A stretch of DNA of 64,000 bases, from contig MWCD01000004.1 in assembly GCA_002069885.1 (NCBI GenBank), positions 81,296 to 145,295 on the forward strand. The letters run 5' to 3'. Under the pieces are notes generated by a model. It saw only the letters and a list, made by a program, of their open reading frames with translations, was not told the origin of the DNA and did not search any database. Made by a program: the position numbers and the translations under genes. This DNA comes from a bacterium ADurb.Bin236 (GTDB lineage Bacteria; UBP15; UBA6099). Of this stretch, positions 31,266-40,306 are shown one piece after another. The first letter of the stretch is position 1, and every line of letters starts with the position of its first letter.

Positions 31266-32162
31266 TTAGCCTTCAACCAATTTCCCGGTCTTTGGGTCGA
31301 ATGTCATCGCCTGAAAGTATTCAGGCATGACAATCCTAGCGCCGGGCGACACCGCTTTGACTTCGCTGAAGAAACTGTCGATATCAACGCCCGACATCAG
31401 GTTATTCCCGAATTTGAAAGGCTGAAAAAAATCGTCGTAATGATGAGGGATAATGTAATCCGGTTGAAGCCGGCTGTTGAGCCGTGCAATATAGTTCGGA
31501 GTGTCCTGCCTGCCTGCGAGGCATGTGAAAAGCGCGTTGACTTTTCCAACTTTCGCAGTTTCATCGTCTATGAGGTCGGCGCTTCCGATGTGATAAAGCT
31601 TTAGAGCGCCGATTTCGATGAGCAGTCCGTAGACGCCGCCTGCGCGGTAGTGCGAGGCGCGCATCGGCTGCTTCGGTCTTCCTGATATCTGGCCGGGAAA
31701 CGGTATTCTTCCGAGCACGGCTTTTCCGTGAACTCCGGGCACAAAAGTGACTTTGAAAGGCCCGCACATAATGGGAATGAAAGTCTCCACCACTTTGACT
31801 TTTTCATCCGGCATGCCCGCGCCCAGACAAACAGACGCGGTTGAGGGAGAGCCTAGGACAAGGGCGCGGGTCTTCGACGCAATCTCCGGAACATCCAGCA
31901 GGTGGTCGTAATGGCTGTGGCCGACGAGAATATAATCCGCCTCAGGGAAAACCTCCGCGCAAAGCTGTTCGTTGCATTTGAGCGGCATTGCGACCATTCC
32001 CGCCATCCGGGGCCGGGTTACGAATGGGTCTATAAGAAGAGTGGTTCCTTTGTGTTTCAACCTGAAACCGGCGCACCCGGTCCACTCGATGCTGACAGCG
32101 TCTTTTAGTTCCGAGAGTTCCGCCGACTTGATTTTATACTGCTCCGGGATTCCGTATGCCAT
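31266..32162 (-). CDS. MBL-fold metallohydrolase
   Basis: LLIDPF, GHSHYDHLLD, PGVHG, IPHHYDDF; start set at ATG 32162. Confidence 0.9.
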   Translation of the reverse strand: MAYGIPEQYKIKSAELSELKDAVSIEWTGCAGFRLKHKGTTLLIDPFVTRPRMAGMVAMPLKCNEQLCAEVFPEADYILVGHSHYDHLLDVPEIASKTRALVLGSPSTASVCLGAGMPDEKVKVVETFIPIMCGPFKVTFVPGVHGKAVLGRIPFPGQISGRPKQPMRASHYRAGGVYGLLIEIGALKLYHIGSADLIDDETAKVGKVNALFTCLAGRQDTPNYIARLNSRLQPDYIIPHHYDDFFQPFKFGNNLMSGVDIDSFFSEVKAVSPGARIVMPEYFQAMTFDPKTGKLVEG

Positions 32163-32240
32163 ATCGCCTCTCCTATCCGCCGCAAAAAAAACGCAAAGCA
32201 AAATCATACTCGCAAAACTTGATAAATCAATAAAAAGCGA

Positions 32241-32936
32241 TTATTTCCAGTGTTCCGGCCTGAAATCCGGAGGGAGAACTGTATGGAATTTTTTGACGCG
32301 CCAGTTTCTCAGGAAGGCGACACGGCGCAGATTAGGATCGGGATTGGTGGGCATCGGATGCCCCACTTTTTCCATCAGTGGCAGGTCTGAACTGCTGTCC
32401 GAATAGAAATAACAGTCCTTAAGATCGAACCCGTATTCCTGAACGTATTCGCGGGCGAGAATCAGTTTGCCTTCCTCGTAACAGAAAGGTTTATCCGCAG
32501 TGGCTACCATCAGCCCGTCTTTATAGTGAAAATTCGTGGCGATCGACTTGTTGACTCCGAGATAGTCGCCGAGCACGTCAATCAAAGGCTGGAGGCTGGC
32601 AGTCAGCAGCACCACATGATTGCCCCGCTTCTTGTGCCATACGATTTCTTTGTAAGCCAACCTGTATATGTTGTGCCGCATATGCTTATCAAAACAATTC
32701 TGAGCGATTTCATCTATTTCCGCTTTCGAGCGACCCTCGAACTGCGACAATCCCTTTTCCATCAGATTGTCGTAGTCGACCGCGCCCGTCTTGGAATCTA
32801 TCAACGCTTTCAACATGTCCCAAATGTAACGCGGGGATGTCGTTTCGCCTTTGCCGAGAAACATCAGCTTGGCCAACATCACTCCGGATGAGCCTTTTAG
32901 AATCGTGTCGTCAACGTCGAAAAATGCGACCGCCAT
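32241..32936 (-). CDS. HAD-IB family hydrolase (SerB-like)
   Basis: FFDVDDT, LLTAS, GK, YSDSSSDLPLM..VGHP..NPD. Confidence 0.9.
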   Translation of the reverse strand: MAVAFFDVDDTILKGSSGVMLAKLMFLGKGETTSPRYIWDMLKALIDSKTGAVDYDNLMEKGLSQFEGRSKAEIDEIAQNCFDKHMRHNIYRLAYKEIVWHKKRGNHVVLLTASLQPLIDVLGDYLGVNKSIATNFHYKDGLMVATADKPFCYEEGKLILAREYVQEYGFDLKDCYFYSDSSSDLPLMEKVGHPMPTNPDPNLRRVAFLRNWRVKKFHTVLPPDFRPEHWK

Positions 32937-32989
32937 GTGTCCGCCCCGCCCGCCGTTTTTCCAAATATCCGCCCCGCTGCTCCGGGAGC

Positions 32990-34126
32990 CTACTTAATAT
33001 ACCCTTCTTCCCGCAGTTCGTCCAGAACATATTTCGTTCTGTTGAACGTGTTGAATATCACCATCGACGTGATTGTGGCCGAGGTCACAGCGTCCGCTTT
33101 GGGGTCGAACAGCAACGGCCTTTCTATCTGTCTTCCGGCGACGCGTTGCCTGAATATTTCGGCGTCGGATTCGTCCCACGGCTTGTTTCCAAGCTTCGAC
33201 AGGTATACCGGCTCGAACCCAATGAACTTTCCCTTTTCGTCGAAACTGTACACAAAAAAGACATTGTGGCAGTCGTTGCACGGAATTCTTCTGGCGATTA
33301 CTCGCGCAAACACTTTTCCTGACTGGGAAGATGCAATGAATATTTCGCCGCTCACAGGCAGTTCGACCCTTTTAATATCCGATATCGAACCCGCCGGAGA
33401 AAGGGCCTTCTCCACCTTTGACTGTAGTTCCTCATCCGTCACGGGGAGTTTCAAATCGGCCTTCTCGTCCGCTTTTTTTATTTCTCTCGCTTTCGCCGCA
33501 AGCGCCGTCAAGTCGGCAATGAGCGCCGCGCGGGTAGATTCGTACAGTTTCTTTTCGTCGCGCATCAGCCCCAGATGAGTGTCGACAACCGTCAGACCGC
33601 CTGCTCCGTCCGGTCTGGCAAAAATCAGAAACGGCGTGCGAGGGTCTCCGGCCATCGCGTGAACCTCGAAATTTTCGTCCGGAAACAGCGGGAACTGCAC
33701 AACTTTCTCCCGCCTGAAGGCCGCAAGCTCGTTGACGTTGTTGCCCGCGCCCACCGCTATCATCTTCACCCTTCCCCGCAAATCAGCGTCCGATTCGATC
33801 ATGTCGTACAACTTGTTCATATAAGGAGCCATGCCGTGGCAGCTCACGCAATACACGCTGATTATCTCAACCAGCAGCAAATCCGCCTTGATGTCCGTCA
33901 ATCTGAAAGGGGCTTCGCTTTTAGGAAGGCCGAGGTAGTTCAGTGTCGCCTCGTCTCCGGGGGTTGGAAGACTGAAGTTCCACAGCGCGTTTCCGGGCCC
34001 CGGAAGGCTGCCGGTTTTATCCTCGCGCCAATCCTGTCCCATTATGCTGGGAATCACCGTTGCCGCCGCAATGATCGCGACAACTGCCGCCGCCACAAAA
34101 TATTTCGCCGTTTTCGATTTCTTCAT
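32990..34126 (-). CDS. Exported TlpA/thioredoxin-fold protein fused to a CxxCH- and FMN-binding-motif domain
   Basis: AAGGAGG RBS, N-terminal anchor, FSLPTP, EIISVYCVSCH (33836-33850), GDPRTPF, then CNDCH (33266-33280) and DAVTSAT (33074-33094). Confidence 0.75.
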   Translation of the reverse strand: MKKSKTAKYFVAAAVVAIIAAATVIPSIMGQDWREDKTGSLPGPGNALWNFSLPTPGDEATLNYLGLPKSEAPFRLTDIKADLLLVEIISVYCVSCHGMAPYMNKLYDMIESDADLRGRVKMIAVGAGNNVNELAAFRREKVVQFPLFPDENFEVHAMAGDPRTPFLIFARPDGAGGLTVVDTHLGLMRDEKKLYESTRAALIADLTALAAKAREIKKADEKADLKLPVTDEELQSKVEKALSPAGSISDIKRVELPVSGEIFIASSQSGKVFARVIARRIPCNDCHNVFFVYSFDEKGKFIGFEPVYLSKLGNKPWDESDAEIFRQRVAGRQIERPLLFDPKADAVTSATITSMVIFNTFNRTKYVLDELREEGYIK

Positions 34127-34155
34127 ATTGATGCCTCCTTGAAAATGGTAAATGT

Positions 34156-35121
34156 TCAACCGCCCGACCTGATTACATATCGATATGCGGATAGCGCCGC
34201 TTTGGCTCCCTCTCCCGCCGCAACGATTATTTGTTTTTCGGGAACTGTCGTAACATCGCCGGCCGCGAAGATGCCGGGAACGTCCGTGCGGCATGCGCAA
34301 TCGACGATAATTTCTCCCAGTTCATTCATAGGAACAACGCCTCTTGCGAAATCTACGGCCGGGGTCGAGCCGATCTCCACGAACACGCCGCTCACGCTCA
34401 ATTCGCTCGCGACTCGCGTCGCCTTATCTTCTATCTCGATTCCCTTCAGCATCTTTTCGCCGAACACTCGTTCGACGGAAGCGTTAACAATCGGCTCTAT
34501 GTTCGGCATTTTCTTGATTTTTTCAAGATAGACTTCGTCAGCCCTCAACGCCGGGCCGATTTCAATCAGATAAACCTTCGGACATATCTTCTGAAGCTGT
34601 ATAGCGGCCATCAAGCCGGAGTTGCCCCCGCCGACCACCGCCACATCCATCCCGGCGAACATCGGGCCGTCGCACGTCGCGCAGAACATCACTCCCCGGC
34701 CCGCATAGTCGTCTTCTCCGGGAACTCCCATTCTGCGAGGCTTTCTTCCGGACGCGATAATCACCGACTTGCCCGAAATGATTGCTCCGTCTTCCAAAGT
34801 GACTCTGAAAACTTGGCCGGTTTTAATCGACGCCGCCCGGCCGTATTCGCGCTTAATTCCGAACGAGGTCACGTGAGCCTCGAATTTCTCAACAAGCTCC
34901 GCTCCCGATATGTGCGTGTATCCTAGATAGTTTTCAACTTCCGAAGAGTATGCAGCTTGCCCGCCAAGCTCGTCGCCGAGGACTATCGCGCTCATATTTT
35001 TTCTAACAGCGTAAATTGCCGCCGTCATGCCGGCAGGCCCGCAGCCTATTATGATTGCGTCGTAAACTTCTTTCGATGATTCGTTCTCTGGGTTCATCGC
35101 GGCATCCATTCGCCGTCTCAA
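34156..35121 (-). CDS. trxB: Thioredoxin reductase (TrxB/AhpF C-terminal type)
   Basis: IIGCGPAGMTAA, FCATCDG, VVGGGNSG, FAAGDVT. Confidence 0.92.
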   Translation of the reverse strand: MRRRMDAAMNPENESSKEVYDAIIIGCGPAGMTAAIYAVRKNMSAIVLGDELGGQAAYSSEVENYLGYTHISGAELVEKFEAHVTSFGIKREYGRAASIKTGQVFRVTLEDGAIISGKSVIIASGRKPRRMGVPGEDDYAGRGVMFCATCDGPMFAGMDVAVVGGGNSGLMAAIQLQKICPKVYLIEIGPALRADEVYLEKIKKMPNIEPIVNASVERVFGEKMLKGIEIEDKATRVASELSVSGVFVEIGSTPAVDFARGVVPMNELGEIIVDCACRTDVPGIFAAGDVTTVPEKQIIVAAGEGAKAALSAYRYVIRSGG

Positions 35122-35351
35122 AGCCCTAATGCGTTATCAATGTCGGCTTTCTCGAAACCCGCTATGACACGACCGTCGATGTCCAGCACTGGCACTCCCA
35201 TCTGGCCTGACTTCTCGACCATTTCCTTCCTCTTATCGGCGTCCAATGCGACATCATAGTCCGTGTACGCGACGCCCTTTTCGTCGAGATATTTCTTCAA
35301 GCTCTTGCAGTGCGGACACGTGGATGTGGAATATACCAGCACGTCAGCCAT
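35118..35351 (-). CDS. Glutaredoxin-like (NrdH/YruB type) protein
   Basis: YSTSTCPHC, GQMGVPV, GF; overlaps the trxB ORF by 4 nt. Confidence 0.92.
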   Translation of the reverse strand: MADVLVYSTSTCPHCKSLKKYLDEKGVAYTDYDVALDADKRKEMVEKSGQMGVPVLDIDGRVIAGFEKADIDNALGL

Positions 35352-35398
35352 TTGTCGCCTCGTCTCTTCGCGCCCGCCTTCGCGGCGCTAATATTAAC

Positions 35399-35890
35399 TC
35401 ACTCGTTCATGAACAACCCGTGATCTTGAAAATAATTGTAGTAATCCTGAATGTAGTTAGCGTGACCCAACTCCCATTCCGCCAGCATGGCGTAGAGGCG
35501 TTTCTCCGTCTGATTTGAGGCTTTTTCGCTCAGTTCGAGGTACATAGCACGGCCCTTGTTTTCCATTTCTATGGCGCGTTCGAGCGCTTCGGTTTCCGTG
35601 GCAGTAACCGAGATGTCCTTAGCCAAGCTCCGGGAAGCTTCGACGAATATTGCTTTGAAATCCTTTTCGGGGCTGATGGTTATTTCATCCGGCCATTCGC
35701 CGCCCGCCGACAGCCTGTCGTGCAACCCGGACAAGTAATCGACGTGCTTCTTTTCATCTTCGACAAGCATCTCGAACAGCGCTCTCGTTGCGGGATTCAG
35801 CGCCCGTTCCGCTGCCATCCGGTAGTAATCCATGCCCTCTTTCTCGAAAAAAACGACCTCTATCAATGCTTGGATGCCTGCGTCGTCCAT
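35399..35890 (-). CDS. Ferritin-like di-iron protein (rubrerythrin family, no rubredoxin domain)
   Basis: EKEG..YY, EDEKKH, EMENKG..Y, EWELGH: two ExxH carboxylate motifs. Confidence 0.85.
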   Translation of the reverse strand: MDDAGIQALIEVVFFEKEGMDYYRMAAERALNPATRALFEMLVEDEKKHVDYLSGLHDRLSAGGEWPDEITISPEKDFKAIFVEASRSLAKDISVTATETEALERAIEMENKGRAMYLELSEKASNQTEKRLYAMLAEWELGHANYIQDYYNYFQDHGLFMNE

Positions 35891-35917
35891 TGTTTCCTCC
35901 CGCTGTTTGCGCCTCTG

Positions 35918-36862
35918 TCATTGATTCAACAGTTCCGCGATTTTTGCGCCAGCGTATTCTCCTTGCTTCATCGCGTTCATGTACGGCGAACCGTATTGCT
36001 GTTTTTCAGTCCCTTCGCCGGATGTTTCCGCGCAGTCTCCCGCCGCGAAAGCCGTCTCAGTCGATGTTCTTAGTTCCGAGTCGACGACGATGCCGCGCGC
36101 GGTCTTTATAGCCGAGCCTTCGAGAAATCTCAAATCCGGAGACGCGCCGATTGTGGCAATCGCAAGTCCGGTATGTATCACCGCGCCGCATTTTGTGACC
36201 ACTCTCTCCAGTCTGCCTTCTGAGCCTTCGAACCTTTCCACTTCGTCGTCCAGTTCAACATTGACCCCGTTCTTGATCATCGAGTCGCAGCGGTTCTCCG
36301 CCTGCTCAGGCTTCAGCGCGGGAGCTCCAACTTTATCCTTGCCGCCTCTGACAAGCAAAGAAACGCTCGCGCCTCTCTTGCACAGAGCTTCCGCCGCTTC
36401 GACTCCCAGAATGCCGGCGCCAGCCACGACTATCTTTGATTGTCCTTCCGCCCTGCGAAGTATGTCCTCCGCGTCTGCAAGCGTTCGCAGAGTAACCACC
36501 CCGTCCAACTCGGAACCGGGCCATCTTGGCTTGTTGGCTACCGCCCCGCTTGCAAAAAGCAGATAGCTGTAATTCAATGCGCTTCCGCCACGCAACATTG
36601 CGACTCGCGCTTCAGCATCAATTCGCTCGACCCGCCCGAACAAAAGCGAAACCGCGTTCCTCGAATAAAAGTCCGGCTTTAGAAAAATGTCGTCCTTCTT
36701 GATTTCGCCGGACATGAATCCGAGAGAAAGCTTCGGTCTCGGATAGAAGGGAAAAGGCTCGTCCGTGACCATGAGAATGGACGCGTTCGGGGAGCCCTTA
36801 CGAATAGTCTCGGCAGCCCTTCGCCCCGCCGCTCCGTTGCCGATTATCAACACATCTGCCAT
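35918..36862 (-). CDS. FAD/NAD(P)H oxidoreductase (rubredoxin reductase-like)
   Basis: IIGNGAAG, Y.RP.LS, LLFASGA, VAGAGILG.E, FAAGDCAE; next to rubredoxin. Confidence 0.85.
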   Translation of the reverse strand: MADVLIIGNGAAGRRAAETIRKGSPNASILMVTDEPFPFYPRPKLSLGFMSGEIKKDDIFLKPDFYSRNAVSLLFGRVERIDAEARVAMLRGGSALNYSYLLFASGAVANKPRWPGSELDGVVTLRTLADAEDILRRAEGQSKIVVAGAGILGVEAAEALCKRGASVSLLVRGGKDKVGAPALKPEQAENRCDSMIKNGVNVELDDEVERFEGSEGRLERVVTKCGAVIHTGLAIATIGASPDLRFLEGSAIKTARGIVVDSELRTSTETAFAAGDCAETSGEGTEKQQYGSPYMNAMKQGEYAGAKIAELLNQ

Positions 36863-36919
36863 CGCGACCTTCTTTCTCCAACTTAAAATTCGGAATTGTG
36901 CGCGCTCTGCCCGCTCGCG

Positions 36920-37078
36920 TCACACTTTCTCGAACATATCTTTGCCGACTCCGCAGTCCGGGCAGACCCAGTCTTCCGGGATGTCTTCAAAAGCCGTTCC
37001 GGCGGCGACGCCGTTATCGGGGTCTCCGACGGCGGGGTCATAGATGTAACCACATGCTGTGCATTCGTATTTCGACAT
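36920..37078 (-). CDS. rub: Rubredoxin (52 aa, absent from ORF track)
   Basis: Manual translation: [52 protein letters not shown]; GGAGG upstream. Confidence 0.97.
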
Positions 37079-37112
37079 TTCATTCCTCCATTATCACGGA
37101 ACACAGTTCCGG

Positions 37113-38303
37113 TTATTTGTAAGATTCAACTTTGTCGGCAAGCTCCGCGCCGAGCTTGCGGCATTCCTCAAGCGTCGCGGCGTCGGGCTTGTACACGCAT
37201 GTCAGAGGCTCGCGAACTCTCGCTATCCCGGTCTTTTCAAGCTCTTCGTCAACCTGCTTTGCTCCGCCGCCTGCCCATCCATGCGACCCGAACGCGGCTC
37301 CGATCTTATTTGTCGGTTTAAGCCCTCTCAAGTAAGCGCAGAACGCAGCGCAGGTCGGAAGTATGTTATTGTTTAGCGTCGGTGAGCCGACGGCCAACGC
37401 GCCTGCGTCTAAAACCTCTGTCATAATCTCGGTTAAATCGTTCACGCTCAGCTTAATCAGCCTTGCGTCCACGCCCGGCCTTGTCGCGCCTTCCAATATC
37501 GCCTTTGCCATCTGTTCCGTGCTCATCCACATTGTGTCATATATGACCAGAACTTTCGGTGTCGGCTTGCAGTCCGCCCAATCCTTGTACGAGGCGACGA
37601 AATCCGAAATATGTTTCCTCAAAATCAAACCGTGCGCCGGGGCCACCATGTCGATGTCAAGCTGCTCGACCGCAGGAATCGTCTTCTTCACCACCTTGCC
37701 GAGGTGCATGATTATGTTCGCATAATATTTCTTTGCCTCGCGCATCAGCTCTTCGAAAAGAACTTCGTCGTCGAAACAGCCCGATGAGGCGAAGTGCTGT
37801 CCGAAAATATCCATCGAAAAAAGAAGCTTGTCCGAAGGGCTGTATGTGACCATCGAGTCTGGCCAATGCGCCATCGGGGTGGCCACGAACGAAAGCGTCC
37901 GAGAGCCGATATTTAGAGTGTCCCCCGTTTTTACAACGTTGATTTTCCAGTCGGAACCGCCGTAGTATTTTTCCAGCCCGGATTTCCCCGCCGCAGTGGC
38001 TATTATCGTCGCGCCGGGAGCGGCCGCCATCACATGCGGGGTCGAACTGGAGTGATCCGGCTCCGTGTGGTTCGATATCAGATAGTCTATCTTCGCGGGG
38101 TCAACAATCTTCGATATGTTTTCAAGCAGACGCGACGAAAATCTATTCTTGACCGTATCGACGAGGGTTATCTTCTCGTCGACTATCAGATACGCGTTAT
38201 ATGTGGAGCCTCTCGAAGTGGTATATCCGTGAAAGTCGCGCACATTCCAGTCTTTGACCCCTACGGTATATATATTTTTTTTAACCTCAATAGGATTGCC
38301 CAT
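37113..38303 (-). CDS. fprA: Flavodiiron protein (FprA)
   Basis: GSTYNAY, SNHTEPDHS, HWPDSM, PAHG, flavodoxin domain YDTMWMST..GSPTLN..FGSHGW. Confidence 0.95.
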   Translation of the reverse strand: MGNPIEVKKNIYTVGVKDWNVRDFHGYTTSRGSTYNAYLIVDEKITLVDTVKNRFSSRLLENISKIVDPAKIDYLISNHTEPDHSSSTPHVMAAAPGATIIATAAGKSGLEKYYGGSDWKINVVKTGDTLNIGSRTLSFVATPMAHWPDSMVTYSPSDKLLFSMDIFGQHFASSGCFDDEVLFEELMREAKKYYANIIMHLGKVVKKTIPAVEQLDIDMVAPAHGLILRKHISDFVASYKDWADCKPTPKVLVIYDTMWMSTEQMAKAILEGATRPGVDARLIKLSVNDLTEIMTEVLDAGALAVGSPTLNNNILPTCAAFCAYLRGLKPTNKIGAAFGSHGWAGGGAKQVDEELEKTGIARVREPLTCVYKPDAATLEECRKLGAELADKVESYK

Positions 38304-38351
38304 TTTGAATCCCCCCGGATGTCTTTAAAACAAACCGCTCGAAAAATCCGC

Positions 38352-38387
38352 GAAACGCCCGCGCCTCAAGCGGCGCGGGCGCGTTTC
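38352..38387 (-). terminator. GC-rich hairpin after rubrerythrin (terminator or mRNA stabiliser)
   Basis: CGCCCGCGCC / GGCGCGGGCG perfect 10-bp stem; followed on the minus strand by TTTCGCGGATTTTTC. Confidence 0.5.
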
Positions 38388-38418
38388 ATCGCTGCAAAAC
38401 TTCGCGGACACTTTTTGC

Positions 38419-38991
38419 TCAGAACTTCTCGCAGAGCAACTGGAAATAAGGCTGTTCATGCTTGCAGGCGGGACATATCTTGGGCGCGTCCGCGCCTTTG
38501 TGAACGTATCCGCAGTTCCTGCATGTCCATGTGGTCGCTTTTGCTTTCTTGAAAACCGACTTTTCCTTCACAACCTTGAGAAGGTCGAGATATCTTTTTT
38601 CATGATGCTTTTCGGCAACGGAGACCGCGTCGAAAGTGGCGGCAACATCCTTGAAGCCTTCTTTGCGGGCCACTTTCGCGAACATCGGATAAAGAACGCT
38701 GTGTTCGTGTTTCTCGCCCATAGCCGCGTGCAGCAGATTGTCGGCGGTCGTTCCCATGTCGCCGGCGGGATACATGGCGGTTATCTCCACGTCTCCGCCT
38801 TCAAGGTGCTTGTAGAACCTTTTAGCGTGTTCCTTCTCCTGATTGGCGGTCTCTTCGAAGATCGCCATGATCTGCTGATAACCTTCATTGCGCGCGACCG
38901 ACGCGAAATAGGTGTACCTGTTTCTCGCCTGCGACTCGCCGGCGAACGCCGCCAGCAGATTCTTTTCCGTTTCGCTTCCCTTAAGCTTCAT
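38419..38991 (-). CDS. rbr: Rubrerythrin
   Basis: AFAGESQARNRY, EKEHA, GEKHEH, EKHHE, C-terminal CRNCG..CPAC. Confidence 0.97.
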   Translation of the reverse strand: MKLKGSETEKNLLAAFAGESQARNRYTYFASVARNEGYQQIMAIFEETANQEKEHAKRFYKHLEGGDVEITAMYPAGDMGTTADNLLHAAMGEKHEHSVLYPMFAKVARKEGFKDVAATFDAVSVAEKHHEKRYLDLLKVVKEKSVFKKAKATTWTCRNCGYVHKGADAPKICPACKHEQPYFQLLCEKF

Positions 38992-39064
38992 ACAATCCTC
39001 CTATGGATGTTAATTTAGCTCATGCGTCTGCCCGGCATTACGCGCGGACAGCGTTCTTCGAAAA

Positions 39065-39442
39065 CTAAGCTTTCCAGAGACCGTGCAGGTTGCAATACTC
39101 GCGCACTGCCACTTCCCCGTCCGCCTTGAAGCAAATCTCCGCCTCCGGAGCCATGCCGGGTTCGAGGAACACTCTGCACGTCCTGCCGCCGGAGATCACT
39201 TGTATCCATTCAATCCAGTGTTTCTCCTCCATCGGATGCGGGACCGACCCGACTTTGACCACGTAACCGTCGGTTGTCTTTTCGGCGACGGGCACGTGCT
39301 TCTCTTTCGACGCGTCCACCGTGTTCTCGGTGAACAGGATCATTTCCTTGCCGCAACATTCGAGAGAGCCTTTGCCCCCATGTAGAACTTCCACGATATT
39401 GCCGCACATCTCGCATTTGTAAACCTGAAATCTTTCAGCCAT
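39065..39442 (-). CDS. dfx: Desulfoferrodoxin (2Fe superoxide reductase)
   Basis: [32 protein letters not shown]. Confidence 0.97.
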
Positions 39443-39526
39443 TTCTTTGCTCCCTTCACTGAATATATTTTCTTATTATATTCGCGCGCCGCCCGGTTTT
39501 CAATCGCCGCCGCGCCATTCACTTCT

Positions 39527-40084
39527 TCAATGCTTCGTTTCCGTTTTTGCCTCAATCATGTCTTTCATCATCTTGCGCGCCCTGAATATCCTCGATTTCA
39601 CCGTCCCTATCGGCAAATCAAGGATTTTCGCCACTTCTTCATACAAATATCCTTCAAAATGAAATAACGAAAAAGGCATCCTGAATGAGTCGGGCAGAGA
39701 GTACAACATCCTCTCTATCCCATTGTCTATATGAGTTTCCATGAAAACTTTTTCGGGGTTTTCAGCGTAATGAACCGCGCTCTCCGCCACAGCGTGATAT
39801 ATGATATTCTCGCATTCGCCGTCCGAAAAATCGCATTCCATCTTCCTCTTGTTCTTGTTCACGTTGTTTATGTGGGTGTTAATCATTATCCGACTCATCC
39901 ATGCTTTGAAATTAGTTCCCAGTTCGAATTTGTCCCAATAGTTGTAACCCTTCAACAGCGTTTCCTGATACAGGTCTTCTGCGTCTTGTATGTTGCGGGT
40001 CAGGCTGACTGCCTGCGACCATAATCTGGTTCTTTCCCGCTCCACATATTCTGTGAATTCCATGTATTCTTCCGCGCCGTTCAT
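39527..40084 (-). CDS. ECF sigma factor (SigR/SigH-like)
   Basis: DAEDLYQETLLK, GTNFKAW (region 2), YEEVAKILDLPIGTVKSRIFRAR (region 4). The ORF track start at 40105 is also possible. Confidence 0.9.
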   Translation of the reverse strand: MNGAEEYMEFTEYVERERTRLWSQAVSLTRNIQDAEDLYQETLLKGYNYWDKFELGTNFKAWMSRIMINTHINNVNKNKRKMECDFSDGECENIIYHAVAESAVHYAENPEKVFMETHIDNGIERMLYSLPDSFRMPFSLFHFEGYLYEEVAKILDLPIGTVKSRIFRARKMMKDMIEAKTETKH

Positions 40085-40105
40085 TTCATCACCTCTCTGT
40101 TTCAT

Positions 40106-40306
40106 TCATTCCCATTTGTTTTTGTCTTTATGTTTCAAAATTTCCTCTTCCGCCATTTTCTTTATTTTGTATGCGCTATCTCTCACTACTCCGTACAAAA
40201 CGCCACAACTGTCGTCATTCCTGTCCTCATCGCCCTGTTCGGCGACTTGAAACATCTCGTTTGTGACTTCGAGAACTTTTTTCAGGTTTTCGTTGAATGC
40301 TTTCAA
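40106..40306 (-). CDS. Small helical protein (66 aa) with a single Cys
   Basis: ORF abuts the sigma ORF (stop at 40106, sigma ORF start at 40105); GDEDRNDDSCGVLYGVVRDSAYKIKK looks like a genuine conserved segment. Confidence 0.7.
   Translation of the reverse strand: MKAFNENLKKVLEVTNEMFQVAEQGDEDRNDDSCGVLYGVVRDSAYKIKKMAEEEILKHKDKNKWE

Follow-up and report, generated by a model that had tools for sequence, protein, structure and literature searches.

Proteins flavinylated by ApbE, thioredoxin-like proteins and cytochromes are the three classes into which extracytoplasmic electron carriers have been divided (PMC8238504). Hybrid gene clusters associated with DsbD have also been reported, in which ApbE, DUF3570, a thioredoxin-like protein and DUF4266 occur together and DsbD is the proposed donor (Meheust et al. 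2021, PMC8238504). Here we describe a gene from a 64,000-nucleotide stretch of the genome of the bacterium ADurb.Bin236 (contig MWCD01000004.1; hereafter, the window), which encodes in a single chain a thioredoxin-like domain, predicted to be exported, and a domain of the flavin mononucleotide (FMN)-binding type seen in RnfG and NqrC. The underlying idea is shared with the DUF3570 system, in which thiol-disulfide carriers work together extracytoplasmically with a protein flavinylated by ApbE; there, however, the proteins are separate and DUF3570 is the flavinylated domain (PMC8238504), whereas the fusion family is a single chain that is FMN_bind-like and has a CxxC of its own. The paper on the hybrid clusters makes no mention of a thioredoxin–FMN_bind fusion (PMC8238504). 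Clusters of DUF3570 or DUF4266 were absent from the annotated neighbour clusters of the family, although no search was aimed at those two families. The coordinates of the features discussed below are collected in Table 1.

Fusions of thioredoxin and flavin modules have precedent in both directions, as QSOX and as NTRC and AhpF. The fusion protein would resemble QSOX, Erv1-Mia40, TrxR, NTRC and AhpF in the pairing of a thioredoxin CxxC with a flavin-proximal CxxC with which it exchanges. Those enzymes of the QSOX, Erv and TrxR types hold flavin adenine dinucleotide (FAD) non-covalently in Erv or Rossmann folds that are not homologous to the flavin domain described here; the FMN of the fusion protein, in contrast, would be bound covalently through a phosphoester within a fold of the NqrC type, and the protein has no NAD(P)H domain. 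In Neisseria PilB, an exported TlpA-like domain fed by DsbD is fused to an MsrA/MsrB client and has a role in oxidative stress. The client in PilB is thus a methionine sulfoxide reductase, and that of the fusion family a flavin/CxxC domain.

The fusion protein has a single hydrophobic segment (residues ~7–30, with a Kyte-Doolittle peak of 2.48 at residues 10–28), and the AlphaFold2 (AF2) model places a helix over residues 5–36. From this one basic and hydrophobic N-terminal segment the protein is predicted to be extracytoplasmic and N-terminally membrane-anchored. Foldseek searches with the AF2 model of the whole protein (mean predicted local distance difference test score (pLDDT) 83, predicted template modelling score (pTM) 0.57) gave matches to thioredoxin folds only, the top 50 being ResA, DsbE, TlpA, StoA and SdbA (template modelling score for the target (TMt) 0.80–0.87, root-mean-square deviation 2.5–3.3). 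The best match of the N-terminal domain was ResA, with an E-value of 4.7e-9 and TMt 0.85. An alignment of 70 full-length relatives, one per species and ~30–45% identical to the window protein, shows C93, C96 and P165 to be invariant, corresponding to a conserved CxxC and a presumed cis-proline. On the strength of the structural matches and these invariant residues, the modelled N-terminal domain is a real, divergent thiol-disulfide oxidoreductase of the TlpA/ResA class. An earlier reading made from the letters of the window (hereafter, the sequence-only reading) had proposed an exported TlpA-like domain with the active site CVSC, and the ResA match and the single N-terminal membrane segment uphold that proposal.

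In comparison to TlpA, ResA and CcmG (DsbE), the fusion protein has the same N-terminal anchor, thioredoxin fold, invariant CxxC and cis-proline, together with a DsbD/CcdA donor in the genome and DsbD adjacent in two relatives. It differs from them in lacking, in the CxxC dipeptide, the proline typical of these reductases, in its permanent flavin domain with a second CxxC, and in falling below curated cut-offs: AhpC-TSA (Pfam) scores 19.7 bits against a cut-off of 26, Pfam Thioredoxin is likewise sub-threshold, and the NCBIfam models for ResA (NF002854) and TlpA give 25 against 170 bits and 13.5 against 230, respectively. AhpC-TSA does match 56/70 relatives (E ≤ 0.01). Proline never occupies the third CxxC position of the thioredoxin site in any family member, and in a Geobacteraceae/Desulfuromonadales clade the site reads CPHC, CSHC or CVHC, which is DsbA/PDI-like. 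A peroxiredoxin reading of the domain was dismissed by eye, since the P-x3-[TS]-x2-C motif is absent and the site is a CxxC.

The C-terminal domain was folded and searched separately, the search with the whole protein having returned only thioredoxin folds. Its AF2 model, calculated from a 15-sequence alignment, has a pLDDT of 91 and a pTM of 0.86. Foldseek yields credible matches solely to the RnfG chains in the Azotobacter Rnf complex (probability 0.97–0.99, template modelling score for the query (TMq) 0.52–0.57), and the remaining hits are noise. A comparison of the C-terminal profile with an RnfG alignment in hhalign is in accord with this result (probability 88%, E 2.8e-6, 102 columns) and places DAVTSAT onto the RnfG motif DAVTGAS. 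The predicted secondary structure runs from a strand through the CxxCH loop, a beta-hairpin and a pocket loop to a helix that starts at the flavinylation threonine. Against the Pfam family FMN_bind (PF04205) the window protein scores 12.5 bits, with a gathering threshold of 22 and an E-value of 0.24; most relatives likewise fall short of the threshold, although the model matches 36/70 of them at E ≤ 0.01 and five relatives score 22–24 bits. Searched against PDB sequences, neither the whole protein nor the C-terminal profile gave more than marginal matches. On the evidence of the models, the C-terminal domain is a divergent and remodelled FMN_bind fold of the RnfG/NqrC type. The sequence-only reading had allowed that this part might prove to be an unrelated fold, which the RnfG and Pfam matches do not bear out. 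Its suggestion of a hidden Markov model (HMM) search met with a divided answer, as the window protein itself is sub-threshold for FMN_bind and AhpC-TSA and the matches come from the relatives.

RnfG and NqrC are classical ApbE substrates, and the fusion protein resembles them in its fold, in a Dxx[ST]xA[T] motif with which the C-terminal helix begins, in periplasmic location and in apbE gene linkage. It is not, however, an Rnf or Nqr subunit; it is fused to a thioredoxin domain, its HMM score lies below the gathering threshold and the motif glycine is usually serine. The ETPGLG pocket motif is replaced in the window protein by S-K-L-G-N-K-P-W, of which K311 and N314 are conserved in a family pattern K-x-x-N-x-x-W. 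The flavin-stacking loop, GLW in NqrC and SYGG in RnfG, has become an invariant CxxC(H) in the fusion family.

The translation contains the motifs CVSCH, CNDCH and DAVTSAT just where the sequence-only reading had placed them. Relative to the consensus D-x-x-[S/T]-G-A-[S/T], DAVTSAT keeps D, T, A and T and replaces G by S. This substitution, to which the sequence-only reading had drawn attention, is real and common in the family: among the 72 full-length relatives for which residues and neighbours were counted, Ser occupies the position in 52, Gly in 15, and either Ala or Thr in the other five. D345, A350 and T351 are invariant in the 70-sequence alignment. The motif glycine does not appear to be essential, because a G-to-A variant of a tested protein retains ~50% flavinylation (PMC12052999).

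Conservation of the gene neighbourhood was examined by clustering all open reading frames within ±8 kb of the family gene at 88 loci. The commonest specific neighbour is a ~340 amino acid protein that is ApbE (Pfam E 4.6e-93). It is encoded within the locus of 22/72 full-length relatives, in 18 of them directly adjacent on the same strand, with gaps of mostly −10 to +8 nucleotides. The linkage occurs in two separate clades of the tree, in 14 of 15 members of a clade with the canonical motif D-S-[VI]-S-G-A-T and in 8 of 8 members of a clade that has D-A-V-T-S-A-T, as in the window, and in which a gene for a small secreted protein precedes apbE. Sixteen genomes in which ApbE lies beside the family gene were searched (G018–G033, metagenome-assembled genomes (MAGs) of the Thermodesulfobacteriota type, with loci L028, L030, L035, L037, L040, L041, L045, L051, L052, L059, L061, L063, L064, L069, L071 and L089). 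In 15/16 the adjacent ApbE is the sole full-length ApbE, and in all 16 it is the only or the best one. FMN_bind genes other than those of the family, and RnfD/NqrB, were not detected in these 16 genomes; the fusion family is therefore the only recognisable ApbE client there. Of the 17 family-bearing genomes that lack an adjacent copy, 16 have apbE elsewhere.

The genome of the window has a single exported ApbE, equipped with a signal peptide and a cysteine lipobox; the sequence-only reading had suggested looking for apbE in the genome. The same genome has an Rnf complex, the RnfG of which carries DAVTGASISS. Overall, flavinylation is strongly supported by gene context. Given the FMN_bind-like fold, an exported ApbE in the genome and an adjacent ApbE in many relatives, T351 of the window protein probably carries covalent FMN despite the change from G to S.

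The small secreted protein that accompanies apbE (here termed sec133) has ~130 amino acids, no Pfam match and the motif G-x-[TN]-C-x6-C-P-[VIL]-x-K-x-D. It recurs at 15 loci, where the gene order is typically sec133-apbE-family gene (upstream of apbE in L051, L059, L061, L063, L064, L069, L071 and L089; also in L011, L015, L019, L025, L026, L033 and L036), and could be a partner or a substrate. The window's genome has no sec133 homologue. A convergent gene for a ~215 amino acid hydrolase of the haloacid dehalogenase (HAD) family lies downstream of apbE in L028, L035, L038, L041, L044, L045 and L053. The HAD protein of the window (PF12710, positions 32241–32936) is of a different type; its gene is co-directional and lies 53 nucleotides downstream of the fusion gene.

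The fusion protein has exactly four cysteines, C93, C96, C283 and C286, all of which are invariant in the 70 sequences. The second pair follows the family pattern C-[DN]-x-C-H-[DN] or C-x-D-C-H-[DN]. With both cysteines kept, position 287 is His in 65/72 relatives, K in five, E in one and G in one. A divergent clade (L013, L085, L087, L088, L092 and L095) has CDVCK or CDVCE at the pocket motif in place of CxxCH. In hhalign, CNDCH is aligned onto the RnfG segment SSYGG, and this segment in turn onto AGLWG of NqrC. In the 1.56 Å structure of Vibrio harveyi NqrC this segment belongs to loop 6-7, whose Leu149 and Trp150 form part of the pocket around the isoalloxazine ring; the pyrimidine ring of the flavin is squeezed between Leu149 and Leu180 (PMC4348036). 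Since CNDCH maps through RnfG to this pocket loop of NqrC, and the secondary structure agrees, the C283/C286 pair most likely lies next to the isoalloxazine ring, an arrangement known from flavoprotein disulfide oxidoreductases. The CxxC loop falls in the 10-residue block of lowest confidence in the C-terminal model (mean pLDDT 83).

We propose that one periplasmic, membrane-anchored chain would carry three redox centres, namely the thioredoxin CxxC, the pocket CxxC (usually with its His) and FMN attached covalently to Thr351 by the exported flavin transferase ApbE. A relay between the thioredoxin dithiol, the pocket dithiol and FMN would couple two-electron thiol-disulfide exchange to extracytoplasmic flavin chemistry. 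Electrons would pass from NAD(P)H through TrxB, a small redoxin and CcdA/DsbD to the thioredoxin domain, and from there through the pocket CxxC and FMN to a periplasmic acceptor, with O2, peroxide and one-electron carriers, c-type cytochromes among them, as candidates for this role. The thioredoxin domain would in this way serve its own fused client, as in PilB, and the protein would be part of the defence of strict anaerobes against oxygen and reactive oxygen species (ROS).

The architecture, the conservation, the fold and the ApbE linkage are observed; the covalent FMN, the nearness of the CxxC to the flavin and the relay are inferred, and the direction of this flow and its acceptor are guesses on our part. 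The relay core, running from thiol to flavin, is the leading option and is put forward tentatively; a supply through DsbD/CcdA, with TrxB, is a shade more tentative still. Proteins of the TlpA/ResA fold class usually take their electrons from DsbD or CcdA. This direction is preferred because of that habit of the class, because CcdA is encoded in the genome and DsbD beside two relatives, and because TrxB and Grx genes are neighbours. The sequence-only reading had correctly pointed out that neither DsbD nor CcdA is encoded within the 64-kb window, but the argument from absence is weak: a single copy of CcdA lies on another contig of the genome, and full DsbD adjoins two relatives, L015 (same strand, 13 bp upstream) and L025 (divergent). 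The TrxB-like and glutaredoxin-like genes upstream, which it had recognised in placing the fusion gene at the tail of an antioxidant operon, are confirmed by Pfam, and TrxB and/or Grx genes are neighbours in four clades of the family.

Several observations weigh against this proposal as a whole. The window protein lies below every curated cut-off, including those of FMN_bind (12.5/22 bits) and AhpC-TSA (19.7/26 bits), and the low pTM of the whole-protein model (0.57) makes the geometry between the domains uncertain. Loss of ETPGLG implies that the flavin environment has been remodelled. The loop-level alignment that places the CxxC at the flavin has ~19% identity and may be off by a few residues. 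In the window's genome apbE is not adjacent to the fusion gene, and one family-bearing genome (G006) showed no ApbE. DsbD is a neighbour in only 2 of ~80 loci. Sites of the NqrC type are normally one-electron carriers (PMC4348036). Finally, the multihaem cytochrome and formate dehydrogenase genes found near some family members fit the opposite direction equally well.

Taken in that opposite direction, FMN would be reduced by periplasmic one-electron carriers, for instance c-type cytochromes that receive electrons from hydrogenase or formate dehydrogenase, and electrons would continue through the pocket CxxC and the thioredoxin domain to oxidised periplasmic proteins or to partner TlpA-like proteins. 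This would be a DsbD-independent route of disulfide reduction, analogous to TrxR-Trx fusions (NTRC) or AhpF, and it is unlikely, although the most plausible of the alternatives. It would be consistent with a ~498 amino acid multihaem cytochrome (Pfam) encoded directly upstream in five loci of the CDVCK/CDVCE clade, and nearby in a sixth, L095, and in L079, and with periplasmic formate dehydrogenase/FdhE genes upstream in L016, L017, L018 and L096. Extra TlpA-like genes adjacent to the family gene in L011, L015, L025 and L043, and beside a paralogue in the window's own genome, would be candidate acceptors, the secreted CX6C protein sec133 (15 loci) could be a substrate, and the lack of a DsbD neighbour at most loci would be expected. 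On the other hand, the recurring TrxB and Grx neighbours would then be thematic only, the usual supply of the TlpA/ResA class by DsbD/CcdA (with CcdA present) would be set aside, the loci of the 16 apbE-adjacent genomes have no conserved cytochrome partner, and the one-electron cycling favoured by NqrC-type flavins (PMC4348036) tells against this direction too. The relay could also end in disulfide formation, as in QSOX and Erv enzymes, with substrate thiols passing electrons through the thioredoxin CxxC, pocket CxxC and FMN to a cytochrome or O2. The logic of the domains is indeed that of QSOX (thioredoxin CxxC, helical linker, flavin domain with a proximal CxxC), the proline typical of reducing thioredoxins at the third position is found in no family member, the Geobacteraceae/Desulfuromonadales clade has its DsbA/PDI-like sites, and the multihaem cytochromes could accept electrons. 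We nevertheless regard such an oxidase as improbable, since the structural neighbours belong to the reductive ResA/TlpA/DsbE class, the context is one of oxygen defence, TrxB and DsbD, and the flavin domain is alpha/beta and RnfG-like, not the four-helix FAD fold of Erv/ALR. A missing disulfide oxidase was considered as an argument for this role and set aside: DsbB is absent from the genome, but two tandem VKOR homologues are present (C76:10869-12175), which weakens the oxidase reading, and disulfide formation there probably runs through VKOR.

Other explanations concern the second CxxC(H) and the flavin site themselves. Were the second motif to bind a metal (Zn or Fe, perhaps between the chains of a dimer) or to form a disulfide of structural function, the thioredoxin and FMN domains would act independently, with no direct chemistry between flavin and dithiol. 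The motif is rich in metal ligands, it lies in the block of lowest confidence in the model, and a longer subfamily adds a Cys-rich tail resembling a metal or Fe-S module; yet each chain, with four cysteines in all, has one Cys pair available for such a site, no further Cys, His or Asp of the domain is invariant except D345 of the flavin motif, and the loop aligns with the one that contacts the flavin in NqrC, so that we hold this to be rather unlikely. A c-type haem at the second CxxCH, giving a flavo-cytochrome whose site is kept reduced by the fused ResA-like domain, is very improbable. An ordinary c-type haem needs an axial His, and the replacement of that residue (by K, E or G) in 7/72 relatives that keep both cysteines argues against the second CxxC as such a site, as does its position in the loop of a beta-hairpin, within an FMN_bind fold still possessing the flavinylation motif and the ApbE linkage. 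What speaks for haem is the presence of CxxCH in 65/72 relatives, the normal role of ResA-type domains in reducing apocytochrome CxxCH, a weak PDB profile match to a multihaem cytochrome over CxxCHN, which was judged to reflect the motif only, and the equipment of the genome, in which three Cytochrom_C_asm matches (cytochrome c maturation) and many multihaem cytochromes permit haem attachment and do not show it. The CxxCH at the thioredoxin site (C93-V-S-C96-H97, encoded at positions 33836–33850 of the minus strand) is, on the alignment, a coincidence, because His97 is confined to the window protein and its same-species relative L022; other members have Q as a rule, or M, N, R, K or V. The single-chain wire of FMN, possibly haem, and dithiol suggested by the sequence-only reading is thus supported by genomic evidence in its flavin part and unsupported in its haem part. 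Lastly, the window copy might not be flavinylated at all, in which case a plain exported TlpA-like reductase would carry a degenerate FMN_bind domain as a non-redox C-terminal module. The FMN_bind E-value of 0.24, the lost ETPGLG motif, the non-adjacent apbE and the lower flavinylation of the tested protein with an altered motif Gly (PMC12052999) would be in keeping with this. Set against them are D345, A350 and T351, unchanged across 70 species, and the clade with the identical motif DAVTSATI, in which apbE is adjacent in 8/8, is the only ApbE and has no other detected client; an unflavinylated window copy accordingly seems distinctly unlikely.

The fusion family may be an extracytoplasmic flavoprotein-disulfide oxidoreductase of a new class, a suggestion that we make tentatively. 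In such a class an ApbE-attached FMN would react with a CxxC(H) in its own pocket and be recycled by the fused thioredoxin domain, linking the TrxB/DsbD thiol network to periplasmic oxygen, peroxide or one-electron chemistry in strict anaerobes. One possibility within it is a thiol-driven reductase of O2 or H2O2 with flavin-Cys-His chemistry like that of Nox/Npx. The new reductant route from flavin to dithiol that the sequence-only reading had envisaged is one of two live directions.

The family is far larger than a word-index protein search, which found 18 clusters, had indicated. A genome scan confirmed it in 260 stretches of species-representative genomes, nearly all of them Thermodesulfobacteriota MAGs (Desulfobacterales, Syntrophaceae, Desulfuromonadales/Geobacteraceae and Desulfatiglandales), and an exhaustive profile search with the C-terminal domain returned 351 clusters (at 50% identity) with E ≤ 1e-3, of which 205 had E ≤ 1e-10. 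With few exceptions these proteins have ~370 amino acids and the same architecture as the window protein. Full-length identity to the window protein ranges from 29 to 96% among relatives. Only C93, C96, P146, D150, P165, G186, C283, C286, D345, A350 and T351 are invariant in the 70 sequences. There is no curated Pfam or NCBIfam model for the fusion family, and no description of it was found in the literature searched, which included the two main surveys of flavinylation. The members probably form a family of anaerobes' proteins that link thiol and flavin chemistry outside the cytoplasm.

In a longer subfamily (P0073, P0090 and P0097, of ~570 amino acids; P0068, P0105 and P0107) there are two thioredoxin-like domains, and the FMN_bind-like domain carries CD[IV]CHD and DAV[ST][QATM]ATMSS. 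The C-terminal Cys-rich tail of these proteins (~6 Cys plus His) has the appearance of an additional module for a metal or an Fe-S centre. The paralogue in the window's own genome (contig C8:16443-17573, plus strand; L008:8444-9574) has 376 amino acids, 43% identity to the window protein and the motifs CSSC, CNDCHH and DAITSATV. Its gene is preceded by a pair of genes for a sensor kinase and a response-regulator-like protein, an assignment made by eye and from clustering, and runs into the start of L008:9571-10674, which encodes an exported protein of 367 amino acids with a TlpA-like domain after a second thioredoxin-like region. A similar protein of 361 amino acids and a thioredoxin are encoded ~4 kb from the paralogue.

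Table 1. Positions of the fusion gene, its encoded features and its nearest upstream neighbours within the window.
Feature	Position	Strand	Basis
Exported thioredoxin-like/FMN_bind-like fusion gene, 378 amino acids plus stop	32990..34126	-	Open reading frame and translation
Shine-Dalgarno AGGAGG, 7 nucleotides 5' of the ATG (34126)	34134..34139	-	Read from sequence
N-terminal signal-anchor or signal peptide, residues 1-31, basic MKKSKTAK then hydrophobic helix	34034..34126	-	Kyte-Doolittle, AF2
TlpA/ResA-like thioredoxin-fold domain, residues ~45-190	33557..33994	-	Foldseek
Thioredoxin active site C93-V-S-C96	33839..33850	-	Both Cys invariant in 70 sequences
Pro165, presumed cis-proline	33632..33634	-	P165 invariant, T164 nearly so
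Helical linker, residues 191-245	33392..33556	-	AF2 secondary structure; low conservation
Divergent RnfG/NqrC-type FMN-binding domain, residues 246-378	32993..33391	-	AF2, Foldseek, hhalign
C283-N-D-C286-H287, putative equivalent of NqrC loop 6-7 (flavin-contacting)	33266..33280	-	Transitive alignment
D345-A-V-T-S-A-T351, ApbE flavinylation-type motif, T351 the predicted FMN attachment site	33074..33094	-	Conservation, alignment to RnfG
TrxB-like pyridine-nucleotide disulfide oxidoreductase gene, upstream	34156..35121	-	Pfam Pyr_redox_2 E 4e-42
Glutaredoxin/NrdH-like redoxin gene, 77 amino acids, CPHC, upstream	35118..35351	-	Pfam Glutaredoxin E 2.6e-19

The fusion gene lies in a long co-directional run of oxygen-defence genes (positions 31266–40306, minus strand). 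In order, the run encodes an extracytoplasmic function (ECF) sigma-like factor, a desulfoferrodoxin-like protein, rubrerythrin, a flavodiiron protein, an NAD(P)H oxidoreductase, a ferritin-like protein, the glutaredoxin-like and TrxB-like proteins, the fusion protein, the HAD hydrolase and a protein of the metallo-beta-lactamase (MBL) fold. Neighbours were assigned by Pfam, which identifies the upstream same-strand genes as glutaredoxin-like, ferritin/rubrerythrin-like, pyridine-nucleotide disulfide oxidoreductase, flavodiiron protein and rubrerythrin; the desulfoferrodoxin-like and ECF sigma-like genes were recognised by eye only. The stop of the trxB-like gene and the start of the fusion gene are separated by 29 nucleotides with no predicted terminator between them. 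Contigs of an activated-sludge metatranscriptome cover the fusion gene, which is thus transcribed, at a lower depth than dfx, rbr and fprA further upstream; none of these contigs bridges the trxB junction, and co-transcription with trxB is unproven. Across the family, genes for defence against O2 and ROS or for thiol redox reactions (desulfoferrodoxin, rubrerythrin, flavodiiron protein, superoxide dismutase (SOD) with a Tat signal, Fur/PerR-type regulator, TrxB and Grx) occur within 8 kb in 19/88 loci. At two loci of the Syntrophaceae type (L038:5626-6755 and L043), a Fur/PerR-type regulator and a twin-arginine Fe/Mn SOD are encoded between the family gene and apbE, an arrangement that suggests a periplasmic oxidative-stress module.

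The fusion family joins two of the three classes of extracytoplasmic carrier in one chain, and appears to put a redox Cys pair in the flavin pocket. It is a fairly widespread new combination of two known extracytoplasmic redox modules and possibly a new kind of flavin-disulfide centre, which, if true, would be the first on a covalent-FMN domain of the NqrC type. The family would also, if this holds, be the reason why ApbE is retained in Desulfobacterota that have neither Rnf nor Nqr. At least 16 genomes, in which no client besides the family is visible for an ApbE that is the only one or the only adjacent one, would offer a clean experimental entry point into the handling of thiol and oxygen stress outside the cytoplasm of anaerobes.

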